Assembly: GCA_016839765.1 (NCBI GenBank)
Contig: JAEOTP010000015.1
Coordinates: forward strand, 64,001 to 128,000
Reading direction: 5' to 3'
Source: Promethearchaeota archaeon
Lineage (GTDB): Archaea; Asgardarchaeota; Lokiarchaeia; Sigyniarchaeales; SOKP01
Length of the DNA stretch: 64,000 bases
Part shown: piece after piece, positions 2,448-19,948 of the stretch
Layout: each line of letters starts with the position of its first letter
Numbering within the stretch: the stretch's first letter is position 1
The notes under the pieces: generated by a model
Database searches by the model: none
What the model was told of the DNA's origin: nothing
What the model saw: only the letters and a program-made list of their open reading frames with translations
Translations under genes and position numbers: made by a program

Positions 2448-5400
2448 ATGGAATCCAAAAATATTAAAAAATCTAGTGAAAGAATTGAAAAAGCTACCAC
2501 ATTTCTCACAAGGTTGTGGTGGTTTTTTCTTTTTCTAATCGGGATTCCTTTAGTAATTGCTACTGTTAGCTATTTTATTATCCAATATATCATAAAAGAT
2601 GTTTATTTTTCTATAGGGCTTGCTGTAATTGTATATATGTTTTCAATTTTCTTTTTCTATAAAAGTTTTGACCAATATCGAAAAAAACCTCTTTTTATTA
2701 ACAATCAAAACAACCTTTCTGCCAGAATTCACATACTTTTTATAGTTAGCATCCTATCTTTAGTGGTTACCCCTATTTTCATTTTGGTTGCACCGCAGGG
2801 ATACTATTTTGAATTATTTCCTTTAATTTCGTTCTGCCTTTTATATAACATTATTTATTACTATTATTACTTTCAACCTGTAGAATATTTTGATGTATCT
2901 GAATCAAGATTCAAGCGTAAACTTAGTTTCAAATCAACTTTAAAACAATTTCATAATATAGTGATTTTGATAAATTTCATTATCCATGTATTTTTTTTGA
3001 TTTATACTTATTATACTAAGTTATTATGGCTAATATTGGTAACTTTAGTTACCAATATATTTTTTTATATCTTTACCCTACTATCTACAATTAAGCTAAA
3101 GAAAAAGATAAGGGATGCTATCGAGAAAGGAGTACTATTTCAAGAATATATAATCAAATTTAAGCAAAAATTTTCTGTATCAATTATCAGTCTTTCTTTT
3201 TTATTATTAATACAATTACCATTTGATATCCTTCTTTTTAATACTTTATCTGGTGTTGTTTATACCAATTTAGATTATATATTATTTGCGTTTGGAGCTA
3301 TAATTTTCATTTTCTTATATTTAAAACTAAGGATTTATATTTCAATACATTACAAAAGAAATCTATTGATATTAAATGGGAATAAATTAAATAATTCAAA
3401 TCAAGAACCTTCAGATTTCTTAATTAAATATCAGAAATGGAACATGATATTATCAATATTTTTCATTGTCTTTACCTCTTTATTTTCTTTAGGAATTAAT
3501 TTCCCAATTATAATTGTAATCAGCATTCCAGTAATCATTATTTCTACTTATTTTGAGCAAAAAGCAAATTATTGCCCAAAGAAATATAGTCGATATGTAT
3601 ATCTTTTAAGTAGTGTAATATTATTGGGATTTGGTATTTTTTGGATTTTACCCTCCTTTTTCGATACTCTGAGTTTAGAGATTCAATTAATTATATTTCT
3701 TGTGAGTTTCTATTTGGATTTACAAATTTTTATTCAATATGACTATTTTGATAGGAATAAAATTATATTTATACAACACCTATTAGCTTTTACTTGTTTC
3801 TTAGTAATTACTTACTCATTTTATCCAATTATTTCATCAATTTATTTTGATTTTCTTATTGAACCCTTATTGATTAATATCGTCAATATCCTTTTCTATG
3901 CATTATTATCTCTCTTAGCATTATTAGGAACATTCTATTATTTATATTTTCGATATTTTAGGAAAAACCAATGGAAGAGTTTCAATCTAATTTTAAATAT
4001 CACTATAATCTCTATTGAAATCCTTTTATTTGCTCTTATAAGTTTGAAGATTTTCATTTCTATGGATGTGATTGCATTTATTAACTATGTTTTAGTTTTT
4101 ACTATTCTTTTACCATTAATTTTTGATTTATTTATCGGATTTAACTATATTCTTGGAATAAATACTGCTAAAAAAAGCTTCAAACAATTATATTCTTCTA
4201 GTTGGATTTTAGTTTTAATGATTTTTACTTTTATTTTTTACTTTACTTTTAATAATTTTATATTCCTAATTGCTGATTTATTATATCTCTCTGCTCTTTC
4301 TCAGATTTTATTAAAATTTGGAGAAGAAATTGACCAAATTTCTCACGAAACTTTTAGTAAGGTTATGAAATTTAATTCCGTTTTTATTATTATAGAGATT
4401 TCTTGCTTAATTTTTTCAATATCGTATATAAATTTCGCTTTTATCGGAATTATCAATAATATTTTACTCTCTTGCTATATTACATTGATTTTTAATGCAT
4501 TTTTGTGTAATATTCTAAAAGAAAAACTGTTTTCAAAATCAATAGTAGTATTAATTAATGAAATTTGTTTATTATTTACTACAGGACTCACTTTTTATTA
4601 TCTATATCAATATACTTTCGGATCTTATTATATTTATGTTCTACCAATCCTGTTTTCCAGCCTTTTCTTTTTCCTCCCAATATATTATACCAAATCCTTA
4701 AAAAAGTATCCAAATTTGATAAAAAATATTACCACCGTAGCCAGTATAGTATTTTCTATTTCTTTATCCCTCATACCCACAATCTTGAGCTTGGAATTTG
4801 TAAGATTAGGTAAATATGTTGATTTAATTACCATTTTCAATTTAACAGCTTTCATTATTTATGGAATTTTACTTTTTATTATAGCTTTCTCGCGCAAGCT
4901 GAAAATTAGGGAAAAAAGAATAAAATTAGTATTAATAATACAGATATTAATCGAATTTATTTTGGCAGTAACAGCAGTATTTTATTACGTGAGTATTGCT
5001 TTAAAGGGTACCCTTTTTGAGTATTCAGTTCCTTTAGTAGCCACCTCAGCATTTCTTTTTATTCCTTTTATATTCTTATATAAAAAGCAATTTATTGGTA
5101 TCAAAATAAATAAATTGCTTCTTTTTTCTAATTTTATTTTTCTCTGGGGTAGTATAATATCAATTCCATCCATTTATAGTATAGAATTTTTCAGATTGGG
5201 TAATTATTTGGAATTTTACTATATGTTAATAATAATTATCGTATTATTCTATGGATTTTTGAAATTTTTATATCCTTTATCTAAATACATCGAAATTAAA
5301 GATAAATTTAATTATATAATATACACATTACAAATTTTCACTTGGTTTATTATTACTATTGCTATTTCTTTAATTATTCCTTTTAACTTTTTAATCCAAT

Positions 5401-8400
5401 CGCTTAATTGGTTAAATACTTTAGTAGTATGCAGTACATTTTTATTATTTTTTGGATTAAATATTATTAATCTCCCTCAGATAGAAAATTTCAAACAGAT
5501 AGTTTTTGAAAATAAAAAAAGCAAGTTAGATTTTTATAAAATTTATAAAATTTATGAATATTACAAAAATATAATATATTTTGGGTTAATTTTCTCAGTT
5601 TCTTCCTTAATATATTCATTAATTCAATCTTTGAATTTACCCTACCTAATTTTTCAGTCTAGCAATAGTTTGATGACAATTTCTTTTGATTTAGGTATTT
5701 TTTCAGGTATTTCTCTAATTATATTTCATCTGAGTAATTTACTTATTGAAATTGAATTTAGGAAAACAAAAGAAATAATTGAAACACTTTTATGGTTAGC
5801 TATAAAATTCAATCTACTATTAATTATATCATTATTCCCTTTTCAGATCTCAATTATTAATAGGATTTTTTTAATAATTTTAATATTTACCGTATTAAGT
5901 CCAATTACGATTAAATTTTTTAGAAATCACTTTATCATTTTAGAAGAAACTTATTTAAACACTAAAAAAATTATAGGAATCTTATTTTTTATTTCATTAT
6001 TAGGTTTTTTTCTTGATTTTTTGTGGAATATTTATATAAGTGTACCATATTTTTGGAGTAATACTTATGTTTTACTTTCTCTAATCATTAGTATAGCTTT
6101 ATTATTTTCTAACTATTATTTTTCAGTTTTTAATGATTATATCGAGAAAAAATCTGAGCTTAATATTTATGGACTCTACTTTCAATCTTTTCTAATTTTT
6201 ATAATTTTATTATTCATGAATATAGGCCCCTCTTTAGTTCTTTTAGTGATCATTTTTATAATCCTCTATCGGAAAAGGATTAGGAATATATACTTACGTT
6301 TAGTCAACTACCTGGTAGGTAGCTATGTGTGTTTGATAGTAGTGAATATATTTATAATTAGTTTCGATCTACTATCTACATTTATATATATTCATCCTGG
6401 ATTTTATGTATGTGTTTATATATTATCATTTATTTTAATATTATTCATATCAATTATTCTAAATATCAAGAAGATCAATGTTTTAGAAGAATATTTATTA
6501 GATTTATTAATTCCTAGTTTAATTTTTACGTCAATATTAATTTTTAATCTCATTCCTCTTTTTTATAATATAACAGTTTCTGTTGCAATTCTCTTACTTT
6601 TATTAAGTATCTTCTTTTATCGTCAAGAAGATAAAAGGTATATATGGTTTATTCGCCCTTGTGCCTTATTATTTTTATTTGACCTAATAAGTATTAGCTC
6701 TTATTTCATAATATTTAGCTTACCTCTTTATTATGAATACAATCTGATTCTAAGCTCTACACTTACCTTTAGCATAATAGGTTTTTGTTTTGCCTTGTTT
6801 TTTCATGATTTACGAGGTAAACTAAAAAGGAGATTAATTTCCATTATTCTTATATTAAGTGTAGCTAGTTCTTTCACATTTTCTTATCTTCTCTTAAAAA
6901 TTTCGTTCTCTCTCACTCTATCTGATATTTATCCATGGATTATTGCTGGAAATATTGCTATTATTCTTTCATATATTGCCATTGGAATTTATCAATGGAA
7001 AATATCATGGGCAATTTGGAAAGCAGGCTATTGGATTTGGATATTTACCCCTATAATTAATTATTTAATAATTGCTGAATCTTTTACTGAAATTAATATC
7101 TATACCAATGCTCTGAATTTTTTTGGGATACCTATTTATGGCTCACATTTGATTGCTTTTGTTATTTGTTTATTAATATCTTTACCTTTCTGGTATACTT
7201 GGATAAAAGAACATTTTAACCAAGTCTTATTTATCATTTGGGGATTAAGTTTATTTTTGATCTATTGGTTTAGTCAAAATGCATTTTTTGGATCTACCTT
7301 TTTAATTAATTTATCATTTGTAGGAATATCTATAATCTTTTTAATGCCTATTTTTTATAGGTTAAGACTCTGGAAAATACTTTCGATTTTGTGGCTAGCT
7401 TTTACTAGTATTTTAACAATTTTCGTTTCCTATCTATTTTTAGAAACTAAATTGGGATTAGACATGATCATATCAATGGATTTAATTCTAATCGGATTTC
7501 TATTTATAATTTTCTCTTTCTTTCCAAATATAAGGGCATTAAAAAATATTGTACTAATTATCGCTTATTCTATCGCAATAACTGGTATCTTTCTAACAAT
7601 ATTGAATTTAATTTTTTCAATTACTTACAACCTGCCTGTGTCAATCAATATGTCTTTCATTATAATAGCATTTAGTCTATTTACTTCTCGAATATTGAAA
7701 TTAAATCGAAAATTATTCAATTTTTTAATTTCTACAATTTTAACTATTAACTTTTCACTTTTAACATTCTTTACTTTTAGTTTAATTCCAAATTTTGAGC
7801 TATTCGCTCTATTTTTCGCTATAAGCGTTTGTGGAGGCTCCCTTCTAATATTTAATCGCTATAGGATGATTTCCCCTATTAAAAAGATTATACCATTAAT
7901 GATTCTTTCTACTGGTGTTGCATTAACATTGTCTTCCTTAATTTATATTTTTATACCGAATTCCTTTTTTATTGTATCTGCCACATTTATTGCTGTAATT
8001 CTATTATTAAATTACCCTACTTTAGAGTATATTCGCCATATATTATTGTATTTAGTTCCAATACCTTTCTGTTTGGTTATTTTACACTTTTTGTCATTAA
8101 TAGGACTATTTCAACCATTATTAAATTTAATTTTAATTGGATTGATTTTATATACCTCAATTTTTCAAATTTTTACTTATTTGAAATATGGTACGGTTAA
8201 GATAGTTAATCTTTTGTCTTTTATATTGAATTCAACCTATCTTTCATTATTAATTACAATTCTTAGTCCTGTTACGATTTTATATCAAATTCTCGAATTT
8301 TGTATAATTTGGTCAATTTTAATAATATTTTGTATTAACTATCTTGAAAGGGCAGGTCAGGAACTTGTTAAAGAAAAAACTATTTCGACTTTTTTAAGAA

Positions 8401-10964
8401 TTAGTAGCTTAATCACAGTATTGCTTTATTTTGAAATAGCTGTTCTAATTTTTGTGGTATTAAATGAGTTCTTGGTATTAGAAATTACGATAAATATTGT
8501 AGCATTCTTTGGAACTTTATTTCTATTATCATTTCTAGATATTATTTTATTGAAAAGAGTGAATAAGAAAATAATTTACCCAATTAACATTCTCAGCTAC
8601 TTATTTATTTCAATTAGCTTTTTTATCTTTTTCAATCAATTTTTAGCTATAAATGTGCAATTAATCTTCTTAAATCTAATAATATTATTCACACTGCAGT
8701 TCTATACCGTTTATATTATTTTTGCTTTCTTAAAACAATATGAGAGTTTTGATAAGGATAAATTAAGTACTTATCGCAAAATTATTCAAACAATTCAAGT
8801 AAATATTATATTTTTCATTATGGGTTTATTTGGATCCTCTTATTTCACAACACTTATCTTAGATAGTGAACCGATTCTTAGTGGGCTGCCTTCAATTTTC
8901 CTATTCTTAATGATATTTACTTTCATACTTTTTACTCTTAATCATATAGTTAGGAATAAATTTAGGCAACACATTTTATTTGGATACTATATCATATTTT
9001 TCATTAATTTCGCATTCTTTTGGGTCTCTTTTATAATTATTTTTAATCTGATTAACACGCTTTCCATTAGTCTATTATTATTTACTATTACAATATTAAT
9101 TTCTTATCTTGTTTATTCAGTTGGTAATATTTACAAGGAAAAAGTAAAAATAGGGCAAATTAATAAAATATATTCATTAATCATCTTCTTTCTTTACTTA
9201 GAGATTTCAATAATCCTCTTTGGATTATCTTATATATATCTTAATATATTTGAAAGCATTCTTATTTCACAAATAGCCTTATTTTTGATTTCCATAATGG
9301 AAAGGTATATAATACGAAAAGTTAAAACTACTATAGTTTTTATCCTCCATACAATAAGTTATTTTAATATTAGCTGGTCTCTCTTTGTTGTTATATTTCA
9401 ATTTACTCAAAATATTTTTGATTTAAATCTAATTTTCTTTATTCTTATGCAGTTTTATACAAATAATTCGTATTTTATTACTAGATCTAAATTTAATTTA
9501 TCTAAAGAACCTGATTTTAAGAAGTGGAAGCTAATTAGACAGAAAGTAATTGGATCTTGTTTTTATTTAACTTTATTATTATATATTCTAAATTATTTAA
9601 TACTCGTTATTACCGAAATTCAATTAATTATTTTAATTTTAGGCGTAATAATTCATGGATTAATGTATATTGATAAGTTTATCTTTAAATTCTTAGCTGA
9701 ACTTTCAAAGTATGTAATAATTTTCTCAATTTTCTTGATATTAGGCACCTCATTTTTATATTCTTTAGGTTGGGTTTTTATTTTTTCATTTCAAATAATC
9801 CCCTTAATAATTCTTTTAGTTTTACTCGAAATAACATATCTCATAAAATTATTTGAATTATGGGACGTTAAAAAAGTCAACTTTTCTAAAATTAGAAATC
9901 CCTTGATAAATTTGTACTATATGAACTTTTTAATATGGCCGTTTTTTTATTTAGGCTTCGAAATTTTTAATATCTTAGCTATAATGTTGATCTTTTCAAT
10001 TATCTTGATATTTTTATCTGTAATAGATATACGTATCAATACAATTAATCAAAAATTAAGAATAACAATATTAAAGACTGGTTATATTATGTTTGTCTCA
10101 TTATTATCTTTAGAAATATTTTTCTTTCTGGAATTTGTAATTCAACCAAATCTTCTATTCAATTTTTCAGTATCAGGATTATTTTTCCTCATTACAATTG
10201 GATTCATAATAAAGCCATTCAAAAGACATAGAGCTCTTTCATTCTTTTATTGGTTATCTATTTTTTCACTGATAAGTCTAATAATATATTTTGCTTATTT
10301 AAGTGGTTGGAGTTTCACAGTATTGCTAGTGGGCATTGTATTATATCCTTTCATATTTATGCTTGAAGAATTAAAAGAATTATTTAACCATTTGTTAGAA
10401 TACCTTCATAAGTTTATTTTAAAGATTAAACGCATTATATCTTTTGTTTATAGAAAATTTATTAATTTCCTTAAAAATAACTTTAGAATAATCCAGATAA
10501 TACTCTCTATATTTATTGGAGCAATAACAGGTATAACTTTCTCAGATATGGTATTAAACATCTTAGATCTATATCATGCAACACTGCTATCTCTTGCTAC
10601 CTTTGGAATTGCTTATGCTATTACAGATTACGTCTGGTATCATACGTACGTTAAAAAATTAGGTGATATTAAACAGATATTTAGGCAAAAATTAAAAATC
10701 TTTATTATAATATGGATAAGTTTTTCCAGCTTTATTTTTGCTTTAATATTACCTATAATAGAATCTATTCTGTATCAAATTTTCCTTATTTTAATACCAT
10801 TTTGGGGATTAGGTGCGATATTAATCTGGGTCGTAAATAGAAAAGAAGCTAAAGAAAAAATTTCAGTTAAAGTGAGATTTTTTATTACCTTATCTACAAT
10901 AATCTTATTTATTGTGTGGATAGGTATTATATTGCTTTGGTACTTTACTGAGGTTCAAACTTAA
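2448..10964 (+). CDS. Giant polytopic membrane protein of unknown function (2838 aa)
   Basis: Uninterrupted 8.5-kb ORF made almost entirely of hydrophobic I/L/F/Y segments separated by short K/R-rich loops; internal repeat visible. Confidence 0.88.
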   Translation: MESKNIKKSSERIEKATTFLTRLWWFFLFLIGIPLVIATVSYFIIQYIIKDVYFSIGLAVIVYMFSIFFFYKSFDQYRKKPLFINNQNNLSARIHILFIVSILSLVVTPIFILVAPQGYYFELFPLISFCLLYNIIYYYYYFQPVEYFDVSESRFKRKLSFKSTLKQFHNIVILINFIIHVFFLIYTYYTKLLWLILVTLVTNIFFYIFTLLSTIKLKKKIRDAIEKGVLFQEYIIKFKQKFSVSIISLSFLLLIQLPFDILLFNTLSGVVYTNLDYILFAFGAIIFIFLYLKLRIYISIHYKRNLLILNGNKLNNSNQEPSDFLIKYQKWNMILSIFFIVFTSLFSLGINFPIIIVISIPVIIISTYFEQKANYCPKKYSRYVYLLSSVILLGFGIFWILPSFFDTLSLEIQLIIFLVSFYLDLQIFIQYDYFDRNKIIFIQHLLAFTCFLVITYSFYPIISSIYFDFLIEPLLINIVNILFYALLSLLALLGTFYYLYFRYFRKNQWKSFNLILNITIISIEILLFALISLKIFISMDVIAFINYVLVFTILLPLIFDLFIGFNYILGINTAKKSFKQLYSSSWILVLMIFTFIFYFTFNNFIFLIADLLYLSALSQILLKFGEEIDQISHETFSKVMKFNSVFIIIEISCLIFSISYINFAFIGIINNILLSCYITLIFNAFLCNILKEKLFSKSIVVLINEICLLFTTGLTFYYLYQYTFGSYYIYVLPILFSSLFFFLPIYYTKSLKKYPNLIKNITTVASIVFSISLSLIPTILSLEFVRLGKYVDLITIFNLTAFIIYGILLFIIAFSRKLKIREKRIKLVLIIQILIEFILAVTAVFYYVSIALKGTLFEYSVPLVATSAFLFIPFIFLYKKQFIGIKINKLLLFSNFIFLWGSIISIPSIYSIEFFRLGNYLEFYYMLIIIIVLFYGFLKFLYPLSKYIEIKDKFNYIIYTLQIFTWFIITIAISLIIPFNFLIQSLNWLNTLVVCSTFLLFFGLNIINLPQIENFKQIVFENKKSKLDFYKIYKIYEYYKNIIYFGLIFSVSSLIYSLIQSLNLPYLIFQSSNSLMTISFDLGIFSGISLIIFHLSNLLIEIEFRKTKEIIETLLWLAIKFNLLLIISLFPFQISIINRIFLIILIFTVLSPITIKFFRNHFIILEETYLNTKKIIGILFFISLLGFFLDFLWNIYISVPYFWSNTYVLLSLIISIALLFSNYYFSVFNDYIEKKSELNIYGLYFQSFLIFIILLFMNIGPSLVLLVIIFIILYRKRIRNIYLRLVNYLVGSYVCLIVVNIFIISFDLLSTFIYIHPGFYVCVYILSFILILFISIILNIKKINVLEEYLLDLLIPSLIFTSILIFNLIPLFYNITVSVAILLLLLSIFFYRQEDKRYIWFIRPCALLFLFDLISISSYFIIFSLPLYYEYNLILSSTLTFSIIGFCFALFFHDLRGKLKRRLISIILILSVASSFTFSYLLLKISFSLTLSDIYPWIIAGNIAIILSYIAIGIYQWKISWAIWKAGYWIWIFTPIINYLIIAESFTEINIYTNALNFFGIPIYGSHLIAFVICLLISLPFWYTWIKEHFNQVLFIIWGLSLFLIYWFSQNAFFGSTFLINLSFVGISIIFLMPIFYRLRLWKILSILWLAFTSILTIFVSYLFLETKLGLDMIISMDLILIGFLFIIFSFFPNIRALKNIVLIIAYSIAITGIFLTILNLIFSITYNLPVSINMSFIIIAFSLFTSRILKLNRKLFNFLISTILTINFSLLTFFTFSLIPNFELFALFFAISVCGGSLLIFNRYRMISPIKKIIPLMILSTGVALTLSSLIYIFIPNSFFIVSATFIAVILLLNYPTLEYIRHILLYLVPIPFCLVILHFLSLIGLFQPLLNLILIGLILYTSIFQIFTYLKYGTVKIVNLLSFILNSTYLSLLITILSPVTILYQILEFCIIWSILIIFCINYLERAGQELVKEKTISTFLRISSLITVLLYFEIAVLIFVVLNEFLVLEITINIVAFFGTLFLLSFLDIILLKRVNKKIIYPINILSYLFISISFFIFFNQFLAINVQLIFLNLIILFTLQFYTVYIIFAFLKQYESFDKDKLSTYRKIIQTIQVNIIFFIMGLFGSSYFTTLILDSEPILSGLPSIFLFLMIFTFILFTLNHIVRNKFRQHILFGYYIIFFINFAFFWVSFIIIFNLINTLSISLLLFTITILISYLVYSVGNIYKEKVKIGQINKIYSLIIFFLYLEISIILFGLSYIYLNIFESILISQIALFLISIMERYIIRKVKTTIVFILHTISYFNISWSLFVVIFQFTQNIFDLNLIFFILMQFYTNNSYFITRSKFNLSKEPDFKKWKLIRQKVIGSCFYLTLLLYILNYLILVITEIQLIILILGVIIHGLMYIDKFIFKFLAELSKYVIIFSIFLILGTSFLYSLGWVFIFSFQIIPLIILLVLLEITYLIKLFELWDVKKVNFSKIRNPLINLYYMNFLIWPFFYLGFEIFNILAIMLIFSIILIFLSVIDIRINTINQKLRITILKTGYIMFVSLLSLEIFFFLEFVIQPNLLFNFSVSGLFFLITIGFIIKPFKRHRALSFFYWLSIFSLISLIIYFAYLSGWSFTVLLVGIVLYPFIFMLEELKELFNHLLEYLHKFILKIKRIISFVYRKFINFLKNNFRIIQIILSIFIGAITGITFSDMVLNILDLYHATLLSLATFGIAYAITDYVWYHTYVKKLGDIKQIFRQKLKIFIIIWISFSSFIFALILPIIESILYQIFLILIPFWGLGAILIWVVNRKEAKEKISVKVRFFITLSTIILFIVWIGIILLWYFTEVQT

Positions 10965-12811: not shown

Positions 12812-13789
12812 ATGAAATTGAGTATTGACCAAAATAAAAAAAGAATATTTTTTCTTACTTTTCTTATCTCTTATAAATGTACAAATGAATGTAAGCATTG
12901 TGCAATTCCAGGTTCTCCAAATCAAGACGACATTTCAATGGAATTAGGGGATGTAAAAAGATATTTGGATGATATTACCTCTAATTATATAGTTGATGAA
13001 GTCGGTTTTTTTGGAGGAGAGCCACTACTTAACTTTAATTTACTAGTGAGCCTCATTGAAGAAGTGAAAAAATTTAATATTCCAAAGATTGGATTACCCA
13101 CCAATGGCTATTGGGGAAAAAATGATTTAACTGCAAAGAAATACGCTCTAAAATTAAAAGAAGCGGGGTTGAATCAAATTGGTTTTAGCGTTGACGCATT
13201 TCATCAAGAATTTATTCCACTCGATGTAGTGAGACGAGCAATAAAAGCTGCTCATGAAGTTGGAATTGAATGGATAGGTTTGGTATCCCAAATTCTAGGA
13301 CCTGAAAATGAAAATAATCAATTTAATGAACAAACCAAAAACATTACTGATATCCTTTCAAAAGAGTTTGAGTTTTGCGAAGTAATAAAAAGTGAGTTAC
13401 AAGTAAGAGGTCGAGCAGCAAACCAACTTACAGAATATTTCCCAATGATGACAATACCTTCAGATAGGTGTCTTATTTTTAAGGTTCCGATGTTTATGAT
13501 TGATCCCAATGGATGGGTTTTTCATCAATTATGTCATGGAATTTGTATCGGGAATGCCAATACAAATTCCTTATCCGAAATAATAAGTGATTTTAACTAT
13601 AGAAAACATCCGATAATAGGTAAGTTAGTAGCGAAAGGAGGACCTAAAAATCTTCTTGACATTGCGATTGAAAAAGGATATGAGCCACTAAATGGGTATG
13701 CAGACAAATGTCATCTTTGTTTTAGTGCACGGAATTTTCTCCGTCCTTTTTATCCAAATATCCTCGAACCTTCAAATTTGTACTTCTAA
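12812..13789 (+). CDS. Radical SAM protein with Cys-rich C-terminal (SPASM/twitch-like) region
   Basis: CTNECKHC (CxxxCxxC), GGEPLL, TNGYW, SVDAFHQEF; C-terminal C...C..G..IGN and CHLC. Confidence 0.9.
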   Translation: MKLSIDQNKKRIFFLTFLISYKCTNECKHCAIPGSPNQDDISMELGDVKRYLDDITSNYIVDEVGFFGGEPLLNFNLLVSLIEEVKKFNIPKIGLPTNGYWGKNDLTAKKYALKLKEAGLNQIGFSVDAFHQEFIPLDVVRRAIKAAHEVGIEWIGLVSQILGPENENNQFNEQTKNITDILSKEFEFCEVIKSELQVRGRAANQLTEYFPMMTIPSDRCLIFKVPMFMIDPNGWVFHQLCHGICIGNANTNSLSEIISDFNYRKHPIIGKLVAKGGPKNLLDIAIEKGYEPLNGYADKCHLCFSARNFLRPFYPNILEPSNLYF

Positions 13790-13930
13790 ACCTATAAAGT
13801 TAGAGAAATTATAATTTCTTAATAATCCAAGAAGAACAAATCCAAAAAATATGAAAACTATAATATAACAAGCTTTTATTTAACTCTTTTTTTTTATTAC
13901 ATTATTAATTTAAATTTGTCAAAAAGGTGA

Positions 13931-14269
13931 ATGAATATTCAAGAATTTAATAAATCAAGAAAAATAATAATGGATAAAATGAAAGAGAAAGACCAATTTT
14001 TTAAGGATTTTGGTAAGCTTGATGATAGGGCATTCTCAGATGGTTTTATCCCTAAAAAATATAAAGAATTAACTATGATTTCTATATCAATTGTTACAAA
14101 ATGTAAGGAATGTATCTCCTACCACATTCAAGAGAGTGTTAATAGGGATTCTAGCCCTTCAGAAATAGTAGACGCAATAAAAATGGGGATGATGGCAGGT
14201 GGTTCCACAACCTATCCATATGTAAGACATGCGTTTAACACCTTAATTGAATTAAAAGTATTAGAATAA
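13931..14269 (+). CDS. Carboxymuconolactone decarboxylase/AhpD-like protein
   Basis: G.IP.KYKEL..I.ISIV.KCKECISYH: CxxC...H motif of AhpD/CMD proteins. Confidence 0.88.
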   Translation: MNIQEFNKSRKIIMDKMKEKDQFFKDFGKLDDRAFSDGFIPKKYKELTMISISIVTKCKECISYHIQESVNRDSSPSEIVDAIKMGMMAGGSTTYPYVRHAFNTLIELKVLE

Positions 14270-14329
14270 TCGTAAGGGTAAATGCCTTATTTTTATATAA
14301 AATAAATTTAGGGGTTAAAATTTTAAAAG

Positions 14330-14710
14330 AGAAAAGGTTCGAGAAGCTACAATGACAACCAAAAGGTCTTCGCGACAACCAAAAGATTGTTATTGTGTGG
14401 TAATGTCTTCCTTTCCTAGGATGGGAAAGCTCAATATATTACTAATACTTCAAATCAAAATACGGTATGGAAAGAATCATCATCCGTAAGAATAATCGCT
14501 TACTCCTATGAACGATATTATCGTTTGATAACTTCACCAATTCGTTAGAATAGGCCAGATTAATATCAAATACAAACCAAAAGGCTGATATTTTTAATTC
14601 CGATCGTGTTTATAACGCACAATCACCTTTCATATCGCTATTGATTATCTGTGGACCAATGCATTGAGGTTACATTACCTCTTCTCGACGTTCACATCAA
14701 AGATGTGAAC
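14330..14710 (-). ncRNA. Candidate large structured non-coding RNA (~380 nt), family unknown
   Basis: Nested long-range helices 14681-14688/14339-14346, 14672-14679/14399-14406, 14657-14668/14430-14441 and 14641-14646/14453-14458; at least seven local hairpins; upstream TTTAAATA (14740-14733); downstream U-tract; most G-U pairs favour the minus strand. Confidence 0.65.
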
Positions 14711-14877
14711 AATTATAATTGTGATAAGTTTATATTTAAATAAACCTATTAACGGGTTATTAAAGAAAAATGTCGCTAGATCTAAACTATATTTTTTTTA
14801 AGTCGGAATTCAACTTTACTTTCTTAATCAGGATTATGTTGTCAAAAAAGACATTAACTAAATCTATCTTTAAATTT

Positions 14878-17286
14878 TTATCCAATAAAACAAGATAAAT
14901 TTCTTTGGTTAGATTTTTTCTTATAATCTCGCTTTAACAATTCCTCAAGTTCAGGAAATTTGAAAGGAAAAATATTTTCGAAAGCTCTCTTTAATAATTC
15001 AACGTACTTCTTTTGATCGTATTGATGTATCTTTTCATCATAGAGATCAGAGAGAATAACCTTCCGTTCAGGGAAATCAGGATCGGCCTCTGCATTAAGA
15101 ATAATATATCGTACATTTTTTCCAGGGGTTGCGATAATACCAGAATCTTCTAATTGTCTGGCAGCTACAGCTTGATAGGAGTTTACTTTATATGCTGATG
15201 GCTTACGAGAGATTCTTTGTTTGATTGTAAGCTCTTGGCGAGATATTTTCCCGGAATAGACTCTATCAGTATATTCATAGAGTTTTCTTTTTGCCCTTGG
15301 AATCCTTTTTATAAACTCATCAACGGTTTGAGCGCCTTTGAATACATCAATAAAGGCACATTGGGCATCTTTCACAATAGTGGGCATATCTCTGCGCCGA
15401 ACTTCGATACCCCTAACTTTAATCTCTCCTGTACTTTTTATGCCCCAATAATGACTAAGAGCAGGAATATCTGGTTCAGCTCTAGAGGGAAGAAATACAA
15501 TAATATTATATCTACCTTCCCAGCTCATTGGAATGCTTGTATGTTCCGATATTCTATCTGCAATTTTTTTAGTAATATCCTCAAATTCCTCTGGTGATTT
15601 TCCCTTTGTATCTTGAAGCCATATGGAATCAACAATACCATGAATGATTTTGCAACTGTATGCTTCGGCAATTTCAGCTGCACGCATAAGAAATTCGCGT
15701 GCAAATGCACAAACGGTTTGATGAGCTTCAATTTTACCGAAGCGGGCATTTTTAAATCCTAAATATCCAAAACTTACAACAAGCACCCATTTTAAGGCAA
15801 TATCGGTAAATTTATAGCGAAGATTTCCTGTTTTTCGAACATATTCCTTATATTGCAACCTTTTTCTTAGAGGAAGTTTTATTGATTTTGAGATTATTCC
15901 TTCTCTTTTTGAGCAGATATGAAAATCCAATCCTGGTACTTTCATCCCTGTTCCATCATCTTTGCAGCATTTACAATTGAGAGTTTCAGAAGAAATATTA
16001 TAATTGGCCATTATGGATGGATACATTGAAGAGAAATCTAACTCTACGACATTATCAAAAACACCAATTATCGGTTCAAAGATGTGACCCCCACGATCAC
16101 TTCTTATTAAATCCATTGCTGAATTAAATCCCTCAGGACTTTTTTTGAATGGAGCAATCAAATGATCAAGTTTATAAGCATTGTAGTATTGAATCGACTG
16201 TAGTGCGCCTCCAATTGTTATTCGAGATAATCTTTGTAATGATACTCGCGAAATACGGGCAACTTCAACAACACCCGGGATATTTCCTTCTGTAAAATGA
16301 AGGCTTGCATATGAGGCAGTATCTAAATGGAGCCTCCCAGCAAAATATACTTGCGTTTTCGAACGATGGAATATGATTCCGTATGACATATAATGATTTG
16401 CCCCTCCTGAGAGATTAAAAATGCATTTTTCCAATGGTATTCGATCTCGAGAAAAATAAAGCTTCCTTGATACACCATGTATTGAAGCTCGCGCTGCTAG
16501 ATATGGAAACATGAATTCATCCCCATTTTGTGTGAGAATTATATCAGGATCAAGTTTTTCGATGGCTTTACTTAATAGTTCTAAATTTTCCGCTTCATCT
16601 CTTCGACTTATAACATATGTTCGTTTTTTATACCCATCTGCGCGCGGAACATTGTTCTCATCATTTTCAACCATGCTAATCTCAATATGATCAATCGGAT
16701 CATTGTAATACGGCCTTATTCCTTGATGTTTTACTTTGACATCAATCCATACAGCCTTTAGAGGAGGTAAATCATAGAATAGTTTTTCATTGTCATCTTT
16801 CAACTCTAGCGAGACAAGCCTTGTTATACTGCCCTTTCTATTCCGATACTTTTCAACTCTCACTCTAAACTGAGAGAAAGACATTGGAAACAAGTCATTA
16901 ACGTAGTAATACATTTGAGCAATAGGAAGATCGGTATTATACAAAGTAAATAGATCGATTTCATCAATTTCTTGAATTGCTTTCTTAAATACTGAAGGCT
17001 TTATCGCTGAAACTCCAAGAATTTTTGTCTTTTTATGATCCTCGAGGCGAACATATTTCTCACAAATTCTCACTTTATTGACGTTGTGATTTTGTTGAAG
17101 GATATGTTTTAACCTTTCAAGATCATTACCTACGCTTATCTTTGGTACTGCAAAGAACTCTGGATGGAATATTTCATAAATTTTCAGAACCTTTTGCTCT
17201 TTGGTAGGTTTTACCCAAAGAATTACTCCATCTCTAAATGTAGAAACATCTAAAAGCCAGCCATCAAATTTTTTTCTTGAATTCAA
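14878..17286 (-). CDS. polB2: Family B DNA polymerase, PolB2 group
   Basis: Motif A ELDFSSMYPSIM, motif B KWVLVVSFGYLG, variant motif C HGIVDSIW (instead of YGDTDS), KVRGIEVRRRD; degenerate exonuclease motifs; overlaps the MGRT-protein stop. Confidence 0.9.
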   Translation of the reverse strand: MNSRKKFDGWLLDVSTFRDGVILWVKPTKEQKVLKIYEIFHPEFFAVPKISVGNDLERLKHILQQNHNVNKVRICEKYVRLEDHKKTKILGVSAIKPSVFKKAIQEIDEIDLFTLYNTDLPIAQMYYYVNDLFPMSFSQFRVRVEKYRNRKGSITRLVSLELKDDNEKLFYDLPPLKAVWIDVKVKHQGIRPYYNDPIDHIEISMVENDENNVPRADGYKKRTYVISRRDEAENLELLSKAIEKLDPDIILTQNGDEFMFPYLAARASIHGVSRKLYFSRDRIPLEKCIFNLSGGANHYMSYGIIFHRSKTQVYFAGRLHLDTASYASLHFTEGNIPGVVEVARISRVSLQRLSRITIGGALQSIQYYNAYKLDHLIAPFKKSPEGFNSAMDLIRSDRGGHIFEPIIGVFDNVVELDFSSMYPSIMANYNISSETLNCKCCKDDGTGMKVPGLDFHICSKREGIISKSIKLPLRKRLQYKEYVRKTGNLRYKFTDIALKWVLVVSFGYLGFKNARFGKIEAHQTVCAFAREFLMRAAEIAEAYSCKIIHGIVDSIWLQDTKGKSPEEFEDITKKIADRISEHTSIPMSWEGRYNIIVFLPSRAEPDIPALSHYWGIKSTGEIKVRGIEVRRRDMPTIVKDAQCAFIDVFKGAQTVDEFIKRIPRAKRKLYEYTDRVYSGKISRQELTIKQRISRKPSAYKVNSYQAVAARQLEDSGIIATPGKNVRYIILNAEADPDFPERKVILSDLYDEKIHQYDQKKYVELLKRAFENIFPFKFPELEELLKRDYKKKSNQRNLSCFIG

Positions 17287-17561
17287 CTTTCAATCTTATT
17301 ACTTATTTCTTCCTCTAATTCTGTTATTCTACTCTCCAAAAGCTCAATCTTTTTCTCTTGTTCTATGGCGAAGGAAATAAAAAGAATCTCTGAAAGGATA
17401 GGGCGTCCAGCTAAGCTGCCAGCATCAGCATGGATTCGTGCATAATTCATCAGTTTGTCAAAAAATCTTCGCTCTTCTGGTCGAAGAGCACGTTTGAAAT
17501 CTTTCCAACTCTCAATTTCGTGTTCAAGTGCAGGTCGGAATGAAGGTACAGTTCTACCCAT
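17283..17561 (-). CDS. PolB2-associated small helical protein (arCOG07300-like)
   Basis: MGRTVPSFR...W..F.RAL..EER..FD.L pattern; 4-nt ATGA overlap with polB2. Confidence 0.85.
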   Translation of the reverse strand: MGRTVPSFRPALEHEIESWKDFKRALRPEERRFFDKLMNYARIHADAGSLAGRPILSEILFISFAIEQEKKIELLESRITELEEEISNKIES

Positions 17562-17761
17562 TTTTTTTTAACCAAAACTTTGTTTTAAATCCCTAGAAGT
17601 GAAGGAATTCGGATAATTAAAAAGAAGATACATCAAGTGTTTTCTGATTTTTAACTTAACTGTTAAAATGAGAAGAATTAAATGATATATAGATCTTCTT
17701 TACATGATAATGCGGCAAAACTTCTAAAAAGAAAGTAATAAATAGTTTGTTAATATCTAAT

Positions 17762-18250
17762 TTATCCTAATTCTGCACCGCACGCCCCACAAAATTTTTC
17801 TATTCCCCTCAGTGGCGTTCCACAATGTGGGCAATATTCCTTTTGTTCACCGACGGTAGGTTCCGATTCTGTTGGTTGTGGTTCCGTAGGAGGTTGTGCT
17901 TCAAGTTCTTTACTAGAAATTTCATTATAAACAGAATTCCAAATTTTATAGAAGGGCAGTTTATTTTTATGAGTGGGACAAGAGCATCTGATTAAGCTCC
18001 AAGGCCCTTTTACTTTCACATAATCTGCTATAGCTTCTTGTCCGCATTTATAACAACGAAAAACAGCATCACGAATATACGGCATAAATTCGTCTTTTTT
18101 CATTAAAGGAACTACATATTTTCGTCCTCCATGTGTTGGACATCTTTGTTTTATTAGGATTTGAGATCCAGTAACTTTTAAAAGAAATATGGCACCTATA
18201 GTTCCACAATGAGGACAACTAAACATTTTACTATAATCTTGTTGAGTCAT
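17762..18250 (-). CDS. Multi zinc-finger protein (two CxxC..CPxH repeats plus C-terminal double zinc ribbon)
   Basis: CPHCG...RCPTH, CYKCG...SCPTH, a P/E/T-rich linker, then CPHCG...FCGACG. Confidence 0.85.
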   Translation of the reverse strand: MTQQDYSKMFSCPHCGTIGAIFLLKVTGSQILIKQRCPTHGGRKYVVPLMKKDEFMPYIRDAVFRCYKCGQEAIADYVKVKGPWSLIRCSCPTHKNKLPFYKIWNSVYNEISSKELEAQPPTEPQPTESEPTVGEQKEYCPHCGTPLRGIEKFCGACGAELG

Positions 18251-18403
18251 TAAATTTCCTCTCTAATATTAATTTTTTATGAAAAATGAGATATTAATCA
18301 CTTAAATTTTTATTGTTTTAAAATCGAAGATAAAATTTTGAAAAATTGAAAAATTTTTTATAAAATTTGATACAATTAACTACTAAAGTAAATCTGGAAA
18401 AAA

Positions 18404-18838
18404 ATGAATGGGAGATATTGTTATATGTCTGTTTATCGCGAGCCACATGCTCCGTGCGGGATTTTCTGCCCTCAATGCCCTGGAGTAAAAATTTTCAATT
18501 GCAAAGGCTGTAGAGAGCAAAAAGGTCAAATAAAGGATTTTCCTGTATGTAAAACCTATGAATGTGTTACAAGCAGGGGCTTTACTTTCTGCTATGAATG
18601 TGAAGATTTTCCGTGTGAAAAGTTACAACCTATAGTTAATTTTGAGATATTTTTACCTCATAATTCAAAGATTTATAATTTACTTATGATAAAAAAGTTA
18701 GGAATTTCAAAATGGAATGAAGTTTGTGAAGAAAAATCGGATTTATACTATAAAGGGCGAAAAATTCACTATGGCGGTGATCCTTTAACTCTTGAGGAAA
18801 AAGACCCAAATATGTATAAAAAGAAGAATAATAAATAA
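18404..18838 (+). CDS. DUF3795-like Cys-rich protein (start may be ATG 18425)
   Basis: APCGIFCPQCP, CKGCR, C..Y.C and FC.EC.DFPC..L pattern. Confidence 0.8.
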   Translation: MNGRYCYMSVYREPHAPCGIFCPQCPGVKIFNCKGCREQKGQIKDFPVCKTYECVTSRGFTFCYECEDFPCEKLQPIVNFEIFLPHNSKIYNLLMIKKLGISKWNEVCEEKSDLYYKGRKIHYGGDPLTLEEKDPNMYKKKNNK

Positions 18839-18865
18839 GTTTGGGGGAATAGTGAGGATTTTATC

Positions 18866-19636
18866 TTAAGAGAACCAACAATCTAAAGTTTTAGTTCTTG
18901 TAGCATTTGCAAGACTCTTCTTAGGTTTTCGAGGTCTCCATTTCAAAAGGCGTCTTTCTGGTAAAAATGGATGCTGAACAATAATATATTCTACATATCG
19001 TTCCTCATCATTTATAAGTACCAATACATTTCCAAAATGGGATAAAATTTTCCCTCCTTTAGGGCGAAATGAGCTGCATTCGTTTAAAGGAGCAGTTATT
19101 ACTATTAATGGTTTAGTTTTTTGAAGTATCTTTTTGATACCATTTATAGCTTTTAACAAATCTTCAAAGGTTTGTTTTTCATAACTTTGAAACAATGTAG
19201 TAATCCCTGAGATTAAAACAACTTTAACTTGTTTGAGTTTAGAAAGTCTGTGTTCTAAAAGCTCGATCATTTGATCCCAGGTAAAGGCTCGGGCAATCAA
19301 GATATTTTCTAAAACTAAGCGAGGCGATAAATTTTGGGAAACCGCGAATTTGCTCACATTATAAGGATTGAAGCGATTATTTCCATCAATAAAAGCTACC
19401 TTTACTTCTTCTCCTCCTAAACCCCCGTATGCATATGATTTCTGTGATATGACCGCTGTTGTTAGCAGAATGTTAGTAGTCACTTTTTTATCCCCGTAAA
19501 GGAGATAAACTAGATTTTTATGAAACCCCTCTCCTCCCAATAACTCATCTAGCGTTGAATCTCCACTTGAAACGAGTGGAATTTCCCGATTTTTCCTGTA
19601 AAAATTGAACCCCGAATTAAATGAATGAAATGACAT
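18866..19636 (-). CDS. Inactivated RadA/RecA-like protein of the PolB2 cluster
   Basis: SSGD.TLDELLGG.G, degenerate Walker A (YGDKKVTT), FIDGNNRFNPY, ENILIARAFT..Q, GGKILSHF; C-terminal TLDCWF PIP-like tail. Confidence 0.85.
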   Translation of the reverse strand: MSFHSFNSGFNFYRKNREIPLVSSGDSTLDELLGGEGFHKNLVYLLYGDKKVTTNILLTTAVISQKSYAYGGLGGEEVKVAFIDGNNRFNPYNVSKFAVSQNLSPRLVLENILIARAFTWDQMIELLEHRLSKLKQVKVVLISGITTLFQSYEKQTFEDLLKAINGIKKILQKTKPLIVITAPLNECSSFRPKGGKILSHFGNVLVLINDEERYVEYIIVQHPFLPERRLLKWRPRKPKKSLANATRTKTLDCWFS

Positions 19637-19948
19637 CAGATGCAATATTTTTTTCTTCAAAAAAAAGTTGGGTTACTCCGACAATTTTCTAAATTCTACT
19701 TTTTTGTTTTGATTTAAATGGAAAGGATTGCATTTGCTAGAAACTTGATTATTATTAAAAGAAAAAATGGTATAGAGACAGAGAGAGGTCATTAAAAGTA
19801 AAAATTATTATTTTTGATGAAAAATTTCTATTTAATTTTTAAAATGCGAAATAAAAAGGTGTTAAAAGTTTTTAACTGAGGGTAACAATAATAATATTTA
19901 GCACTTCTTGATCATTTAAATTTTATATTTTAAAGGTGTGAAATCAAA

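Follow-up and report, generated by a model that had tools for sequence, protein, structure and literature searches.

To our knowledge, large structured RNA classes are rare, and those orphan classes that have been described are almost all bacterial. CsrB/RsmZ and the 6S-type RNAs are regulated, stand-alone RNAs that sequester proteins, and the Y RNA/Ro60 system is linked to the damage response in some bacteria. Among the large classes, ROOL is abundant and non-essential, and the cages of ROOL and GOLLD rely on kissing loops (10.1101/2024.12.08.627333). Here we describe an RNA of Lokiarchaeia that is, like ROOL, GOLLD and OLE (10.1101/2024.12.08.627333; PMC12265935), a large, highly branched and stand-alone orphan RNA. 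Unlike these RNAs, it is archaeal rather than bacterial or phage-encoded, shows no similarity to any Rfam family, has neither a tRNA island nor a partner resembling oapA as far as could be detected, was not found in viruses, and is built of repeatable units of ~250 nt in which no conserved kissing loops or pseudoknots were detected.

Other known systems resemble this RNA in part. With CsrB/RsmZ and the 6S-type RNAs, it shares the stand-alone, regulated character, the repeated hairpin modules and the variable valency, but no single-stranded loop motif comparable to GGA is repeated in it, and its long-range structure is far more extensive. The archaeal RNase P RNA (RF00373) and SRP RNA (RF01857) are of similar size and are likewise closed by a helix that pairs the 5' end with the 3' end and is accompanied by side hairpins, but their signature motifs are absent here and both RNAs are encoded elsewhere in the genome. 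As in Y RNAs, the 5' strand of the terminal helix is GUCGA-like and the tail is rich in U, whereas the lokiarchaeal RNA is much larger and has no tRNA-like domain, and no TROVE/Ro60 gene (PF05731) was found in the genome (G000; 96% complete), the control genomes being positive. Neither a description of this RNA nor one of any large orphan structured RNA class of Asgard archaea was found in the literature.

The locus and the predicted fold

The window, that is, the whole stretch of 64,000 nucleotides that was analyzed, corresponds to G000:C64:64001-128000. The element, present in a single copy in G000, lies on the minus strand (14710-14325) within a 608-nt gap that separates polB2 from a carboxymuconolactone-decarboxylase (AhpD-like) gene. 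As had been claimed in the initial annotation, this gap contains no credible open reading frame (none of at least 60 aa at 14269-14878) and is richer in GC than its neighborhood, albeit by a small difference (31-35% vs 18-26% in the adjoining spacers). The nearby genes of the PolB2 module are as follows.

14878-17286, minus strand: polB2 (Pfam DNA_pol_B; GIVDS motif)
17283-17561: PPB2, with the start MGRT, adjoining polB2
18866-19660: RadA-like gene (Pfam Rad51)

The PolB2 operon or module has been described earlier (PMC11791011), and the polB2-PPB2-RadA arrangement found here is a split version of it: upstream of polB2, two intervening genes, one encoding a zinc ribbon and the other, on the opposite strand, a DUF3795 protein, separate the RadA-like gene from PPB2/polB2 (window 17283-19660). 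Elsewhere in the window, a plus-strand open reading frame of 2838 aa extends over 2448-10964.

On the minus strand, the minimum free energy (MFE) of the element is -108.2 kcal/mol (z -4.26), and none of the 100 shuffles folds equally well, in agreement with the closed, nested minus-strand architecture that had been proposed by eye. The plus strand reaches a z-score of -4.18, yet with a weaker energy and an unstable centroid; because it scores nearly as well, as expected of helices, folding alone leaves the strand open. The minus strand was assigned because the promoter lies on it and because, in the model-fitted alignment of the homologs, G-U cells outnumber A-C cells (473 vs 147), the initial annotation having noted that most G-U pairs work on this strand; the z-scores are better on the strand of the element in all 9 homologs tested. 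The helices H0 and P1 to P4 are all found at the positions originally given for them, with pair probabilities of 0.91-1.00, and the fold comprises the following parts.

14710-14702/14698-14690, minus strand: H0, the 5' hairpin (pair probability 1.00; covarying; optional module)
14688-14681/14346-14339, minus strand: P1, the closing helix (pair probability 0.97)
14679-14672/14406-14399, minus strand: P2 (pair probability 0.99; double-sided changes in 4 of 9 pairs)
14668-14655/14443-14430, minus strand: P3 (pair probability 0.91; one C-A mismatch; double-sided changes in 6 of 12 pairs)
14646-14641/14458-14453, minus strand: P4 (pair probability 0.92)
14638-14626/14475-14462, minus strand: P5 (covariation; conserved AUA internal loop)
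14339-14688, minus strand: folded core closed by P1, a coaxial trunk P1-P2-P3-P4-P5 with side hairpins
14399-14679, minus strand: outer scaffold of P2 and P3, common to every size class
14453-14646, minus strand: type-B inner domain, with P4, P5 and a multiway junction with five hairpins
14625-14601, 14593-14568, 14557-14534, 14532-14517 and 14516-14479, minus strand: the five junction hairpins
14411-14429, minus strand: He, at the P2/P3 junction, a side hairpin of variable length that is missing from the third units of tandem forms
14349-14396, minus strand: Hf, at the P1/P2 junction, a side hairpin that is longer in the clade of the window

Two of the local stems that had been drawn initially, 14505-14554 and 14461-14488, are not conserved and give way to the covarying P5 and the hairpins at 14557-14534, 14532-14517 and 14516-14479. 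The loops are mostly of the stable cUNCG, cUAACg and GNRA types rather than pairing loops, and a UAUC-N4-GAUA hairpin recurs in types A and B (34 of 51 homologs under the strict pattern; the types are defined below). No covarying pseudoknot was detected in the homolog alignments. Pairing of the H0 loop with the strand that follows P2 on its 3' side, a pseudoknot that could form in some members from genus g18, was rejected: it is possible neither in G000 nor in most type A sequences and competes with P2. A thrice-repeated CUUUUGGUU motif is not kept in the homologs.

Promoter, terminator and transcripts

The element is flanked by the following signals, including the TATA-like box and the U-rich tract that had been reported previously.

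14805-14802 and 14775-14772, minus strand: two CGAC boxes, exactly 30 bp apart, each followed by an A-rich tract
14733-14762, minus strand: core promoter block, TAATAA-N4-TTAATAG and then the TATA box TTTAAATA (14740-14733)
14325-14338, minus strand: CC and then a U-rich tract (14336-14325), with a similar tract in the homologs

The promoter block precedes nearly all intact copies at a fixed spacing and has no second occurrence in G000. Among 71 collected promoter sequences, which include about 7 false captures, 39 have the CGAC boxes at -65/-35 relative to the TATA box, and another 5 have them at -66/-36; these boxes are putative operator or activator sites. The family promoter weight matrix scores 42 at the site in the window, itself part of the training set, and at most 16 elsewhere in G000. 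As judged from its sequence, the promoter block suggests a dedicated regulator. A CGAC-box regulon was sought upstream of the G000 genes, where the box shows no clear enrichment over shuffles, and a DNA-damage regulon defined by this box was rejected on the same grounds. A good match to the CGAC box with its A-tract (G000:C73:8129, minus strand) precedes a TFB-like gene by ~55 nt. Transcription probably starts at 14710, and the U-rich tract is likely to be an archaeal terminator.

The stretch was found in 24 sequencing runs filed as metatranscriptomes, from 20 studies, mostly of sediment, marsh and estuary; 3 of the 24 runs were flagged as probably DNA. When four runs from four studies were compared with positions 13501-15900, near-identical contigs were found only within 14340-14694. 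The contig from run X2, 348 nt in length, covers 14342-14689 without loose ends and thus spans the P1-closed core almost exactly, and another contig has a depth of about 930. The contigs start at 14685-14694, near the boundary of H0 and P1, and not at 14710. Loose ends of contigs match other type-B members exactly, that is, other variants of the family are present in the same runs. The contig from run X1 has a 26-nt loose end at the 3' border of the RNA (14340) that matches neither the genome nor the other loci and may be a chimera, a library artifact or a different flank. Assembled contigs give no strand, ends or level, the runs were chosen because they contain the stretch, and the contig gap over polB2 and the AhpD-like gene is unsuited to expression ranking; the contigs are good evidence of a discrete RNA and weak evidence of its abundance and ends.

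Distribution, covariation and selection

A search with BLAST and three covariance models identified homologs in 59 of the 135 genomes of family f1 of the Lokiarchaeia, namely, in genera g1 (21 of 42), g18 (37 of 54) and g23 (1 of 6), and in none of the ten other genera; among the 59 positive genomes, a few copies are decayed or partial. Outside this family, no homologs were detected in 19 genomes from other families of the same order with model R3 or in 126 genomes of the phylum sample with model R2. There is none in the closed genomes G044 and G055, a match in G050 at an E-value of 0.35 was not reproduced, and a match in G001 is false and lies within an open reading frame. No homolog was found in plasmids. 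In viral contigs, one P1-like match inside a long open reading frame and three promoter-like matches were discarded, all being negative with model R3. These negative results are bounded by the sensitivity of the searches and do not prove absence.

The predicted structure is supported by compensatory changes. In a structure-blind MAFFT alignment of 16 sequences, 96.4% of the cells pair and 25 of the 86 pairs show double-sided changes, a result that was matched by none of 500 shuffles; in slid controls, the paired cells drop to 34-46%, although this control is lenient because the structure was predicted from the same alignment. The model-fitted alignments, which are biased in favor of the structure, contain 64 covarying pairs out of 120 for type B and 61 out of 86 for type A (0 of 500 shuffles in each case).

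In the comparison with G020 and G018, identity is 76-78% for the RNA and 72-79% for the promoter, whereas it is 51-52% at the fourfold-degenerate sites of polB2; because the identity of the RNA exceeds that at these sites, the RNA is under purifying selection. The closing helix is nearly invariant, with 4 of its 7 pairs never varying among 41 homologs, and this invariance exceeds what pairing alone requires. Few unpaired residues are invariant across both types A and B. Taken together, the covariation, the conservation above the level of the polB2 fourfold-degenerate sites, the dedicated promoter and the discrete contigs support the original proposal of an independently transcribed large non-coding RNA, and we consider it almost certain that the element is a genuine non-coding RNA gene. 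Of the outcomes that had been named as arguing against it, namely, a match to an Rfam family, a poor z-score, a lack of compensatory changes and an absence of transcription, none was observed.

The RNA is dispensable, given that both clean losses and decaying copies exist among the genomes. In one g18 genome (G146), a three-unit array located away from polB2 (L054:1501-1751) has a first unit that is nearly identical to that of a g1 genome (G002), apparently as a result of either horizontal transfer or binning contamination.

Modular forms

All forms of the RNA have in common the outer scaffold P1-P2-P3 and Hf. Type A is 237-293 nt in length, its P3 junction bearing three or four hairpins, and type B, the form found in the window, is about 330-385 nt in length, with a P4-P5 arm carrying five hairpins. 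In a 665-nt form (G032 and G026), a single P3 encloses sets of type-A hairpins together with the arm of type B. Finally, arrays of ~735 nt, present in at least 8 genomes, consist of three units under one promoter, which are only 47-58% identical to each other and nevertheless keep the fold. Model R3 was trained without the second units and without the stand-alone type B; because it detects both, they are homologous to the rest of the family. The natural deletion variants define a minimal unit of ~240-260 nt.

Smaller modules vary as well. The number of H0 copies is 0, 1 or 2: H0 is absent in G123, where the spacing to the TATA box is unchanged, and doubled in G124, G138, G117, G141 and G158. 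The He hairpin and one inner hairpin are also optional. Two complete genes are found in tandem in G124, and H0-like hairpins are located between tandem units. In the MFE folds of some arrays, the outermost P1 strands pair in a ring-like manner; in the G024 array, P1 is self-closing in units 1 and 3.

Comparison with known RNA families

Searches of the window and 15 homologous loci against Rfam 15, including ROOL, GOLLD, OLE, HEARO and the ribozymes, and with relaxed E-values, yielded only chance matches (E-value of 0.97 or worse), none of which spans the RNA. The signatures of RNase P, SRP helix 8, tRNA and group II domain 5, which were reported missing from the sequence in the window, are likewise absent or sporadic among 51 homologs, as is the hammerhead motif; the count of 51 of 51 for the P1 motif in this set is circular because the motif was required for extraction. 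In particular, the P4 pseudoknot with the CR-I/CR-V motifs of RNase P RNA is found in 0 of 51 homologs, and the true RNase P RNA of G000 is encoded at C6:6091-6415 (126 bits). The helix 8 motif of SRP RNA is also found in 0 of 51, and the SRP RNA of G000 is a separate gene at C33:47569-47807. The latter covers model positions 67-307 only and scores below the gathering cut-off; with a partial match and a sub-cut-off score, its Alu domain is therefore divergent or missing.

ARAGORN finds no tRNA or tmRNA in the window, and the T-loop pattern is present in 1 of 51 homologs; elsewhere in G000, the program calls one tRNA Pyl and two SeC (C40:41242; C67:62059, 68294). Group I and group II introns were rejected, the S element and domain 5 patterns each being found in 0 of 51 homologs of an element that is intergenic and has its own promoter. 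A C-box-like sequence occurs in 5 of 51, within a helix in the RNA of the window, and a terminal D box in 0 of 51, which argues against a box C/D sRNA. As for the RNAs of retrons (msr-msd), DGR and DRT, no PF00078 reverse transcriptase was found in G000, and no RT-like recurring neighbor was found within 1.5 kb of about 54 loci. Both ends of the RNA are conserved, with no variable guide, and the TnpB locus (C96) is dissimilar, which argues against a TnpB/IscB omega RNA. Cage-type kissing loops would require conserved loop-loop complementarity; in type B, the best conserved pair is found in 27% of the sequences. A self-complementary loop is present in 58% of the type A sequences. Thus, by every test applied, the RNA apparently represents a new class, the newness being that of an RNA class and not of a demonstrated mechanism, in line with its initial description as undescribed.

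Relation to polB2

About 27 loci follow polB2 on its strand, either immediately or with a single gene in between, and about 30 intact loci are located elsewhere, many of them behind a gene for a small membrane protein. In family f1, polB2 is found in 115 of 135 genomes and the RNA in 59 of 135. Two genomes, G032 (100% complete) and G066 (99%), carry the RNA and lack a match to polB2; in G014, each of the two polB2 copies carries an RNA locus. No RNA was detected downstream of polB2 in 28 RNA-negative genomes, and polB2 in such genomes usually abuts the next gene. In L143, L139 and L145, all RNA-negative, only the first CGAC-like box and its A-tract remain just after polB2, apparently as a deletion scar. 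No consistent co-travelling neighbor gene was found among the loci. The 3' flank of polB2 is a variable site for accessory genes, and we read the linkage as positional because the site behaves as a hotspot of this kind; on this genomic evidence, a functional link between the RNA and PolB2 is disfavored.

Possible functions of the RNA

For this stand-alone, non-essential RNA gene we favor, tentatively and at somewhat less than even probability, a role in trans as a multivalent scaffold or decoy for protein. Such an RNA would be a compact binding platform or trap for a host protein, recognized through its near-invariant P1/P2/Hf region and through the small hairpins that recur in it; duplication of hairpin sets, as in the 665-nt form, or of whole units, as in the arrays and tandem genes, would provide more binding sites per transcript or per cell, the CGAC boxes would render the RNA inducible, and H0 would be a dispensable leader that may be removed. 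The invariance of P1, the repetition of modules at every scale, the stable capping loops and the recurring hairpins are all compatible with a scaffold, whereas no protein partner was found, no gene is consistently located alongside the loci, and the repeated modules would suit an RNA-only oligomer equally well. An oligomer of this type, similar to ROOL, GOLLD and OLE, held together by A-minor and loop-receptor contacts and represented in the arrays by covalently linked trimers of an assembly that is normally non-covalent, is the main rival, although an unlikely one. Every unit of the three-unit arrays keeps the fold, many of the loops are GNRA loops or an A-rich hexaloop, the outermost P1 pairing is ring-like in the MFE folds of some arrays, and ROOL is likewise abundant and non-essential (10.1101/2024.12.08.627333); however, the cages of ROOL and GOLLD use kissing loops and the best conserved loop-loop complement is confined to 27% of type B, P1 closes on itself in units 1 and 3 of the G024 array, and there is no covarying pseudoknot. 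We give a similarly low estimate to the broader proposal that the ~250-nt unit is a self-assembling block and the arrays are fused, diverged subunits of a ring or cage made of RNA only or of RNA and protein. If true, this would be the RNA counterpart of pseudo-symmetric proteins, which arise when a gene is triplicated, and the archaeal relatives of eukaryotes would have yielded their first RNA particle of this kind.

The remaining explanations are improbable to different degrees. The "ribozyme-like" character ascribed to the RNA originally is not backed by any motif: despite the large multi-junction fold, the H0-like hairpins that divide tandem units and the contig starts at 14685-14694, near the H0/P1 boundary, a new ribozyme that cuts off H0 or separates tandem units seems a poor candidate, with no RNase P, group I/II or hammerhead motif, no Rfam match, few invariant unpaired residues common to types A and B, an H0 that can be missing, and contig ends that are not to be equated with transcript ends. 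We are just as skeptical of a role in the PolB2-PPB2-iRadA damage-tolerance complex, be it as RNA subunit, as primer or as regulator. The position of about 27 loci after polB2, the loci carried by both polB2 copies of G014 and a reverse CCGACA (19676-19683), which resembles the promoter box of the RNA, immediately precedes the RadA-like gene and is also retained in G020, are opposed by the about 30 intact loci elsewhere, the different distributions (115 vs 59 of 135 genomes), the presence of the RNA in G032 and G066 without a polB2 match, the variability of the 3' flank and the lack of clear enrichment of CGAC boxes upstream of genes; furthermore, models of the PolB2 mutasome need no RNA (PMC11791011). 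A selfish or passively mobile cassette of little function for the host, such as a non-autonomous element or an orphan guide RNA, could explain the patchy distribution over several genomic sites, the decaying copies and the g1-like triple array in a g18 genome; the strong structural selection, the single copy in G000, the absence of a variable guide at either end, of similarity to the TnpB locus and of a detectable reverse transcriptase, and the failure to find the RNA in viral contigs or plasmids make this, too, quite improbable. Least plausible by far is that the element belongs in cis to the polB2 mRNA, as its 3' UTR, as a terminator or as a SECIS-like structure: the RNA is on the same strand, 167 nt past the polB2 stop, but its own promoter moves along with it, about half of the loci have no upstream polB2, the contigs end at the borders of the RNA, and polB2 lacks an in-frame stop that could be recoded.

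The narrow distribution and the dispensability of the family limit its bearing on the origin of eukaryotes. With covariation from about 60 genomes, transcripts from the field, deletion variants and tandem fusions, the RNA is directly testable in vitro.
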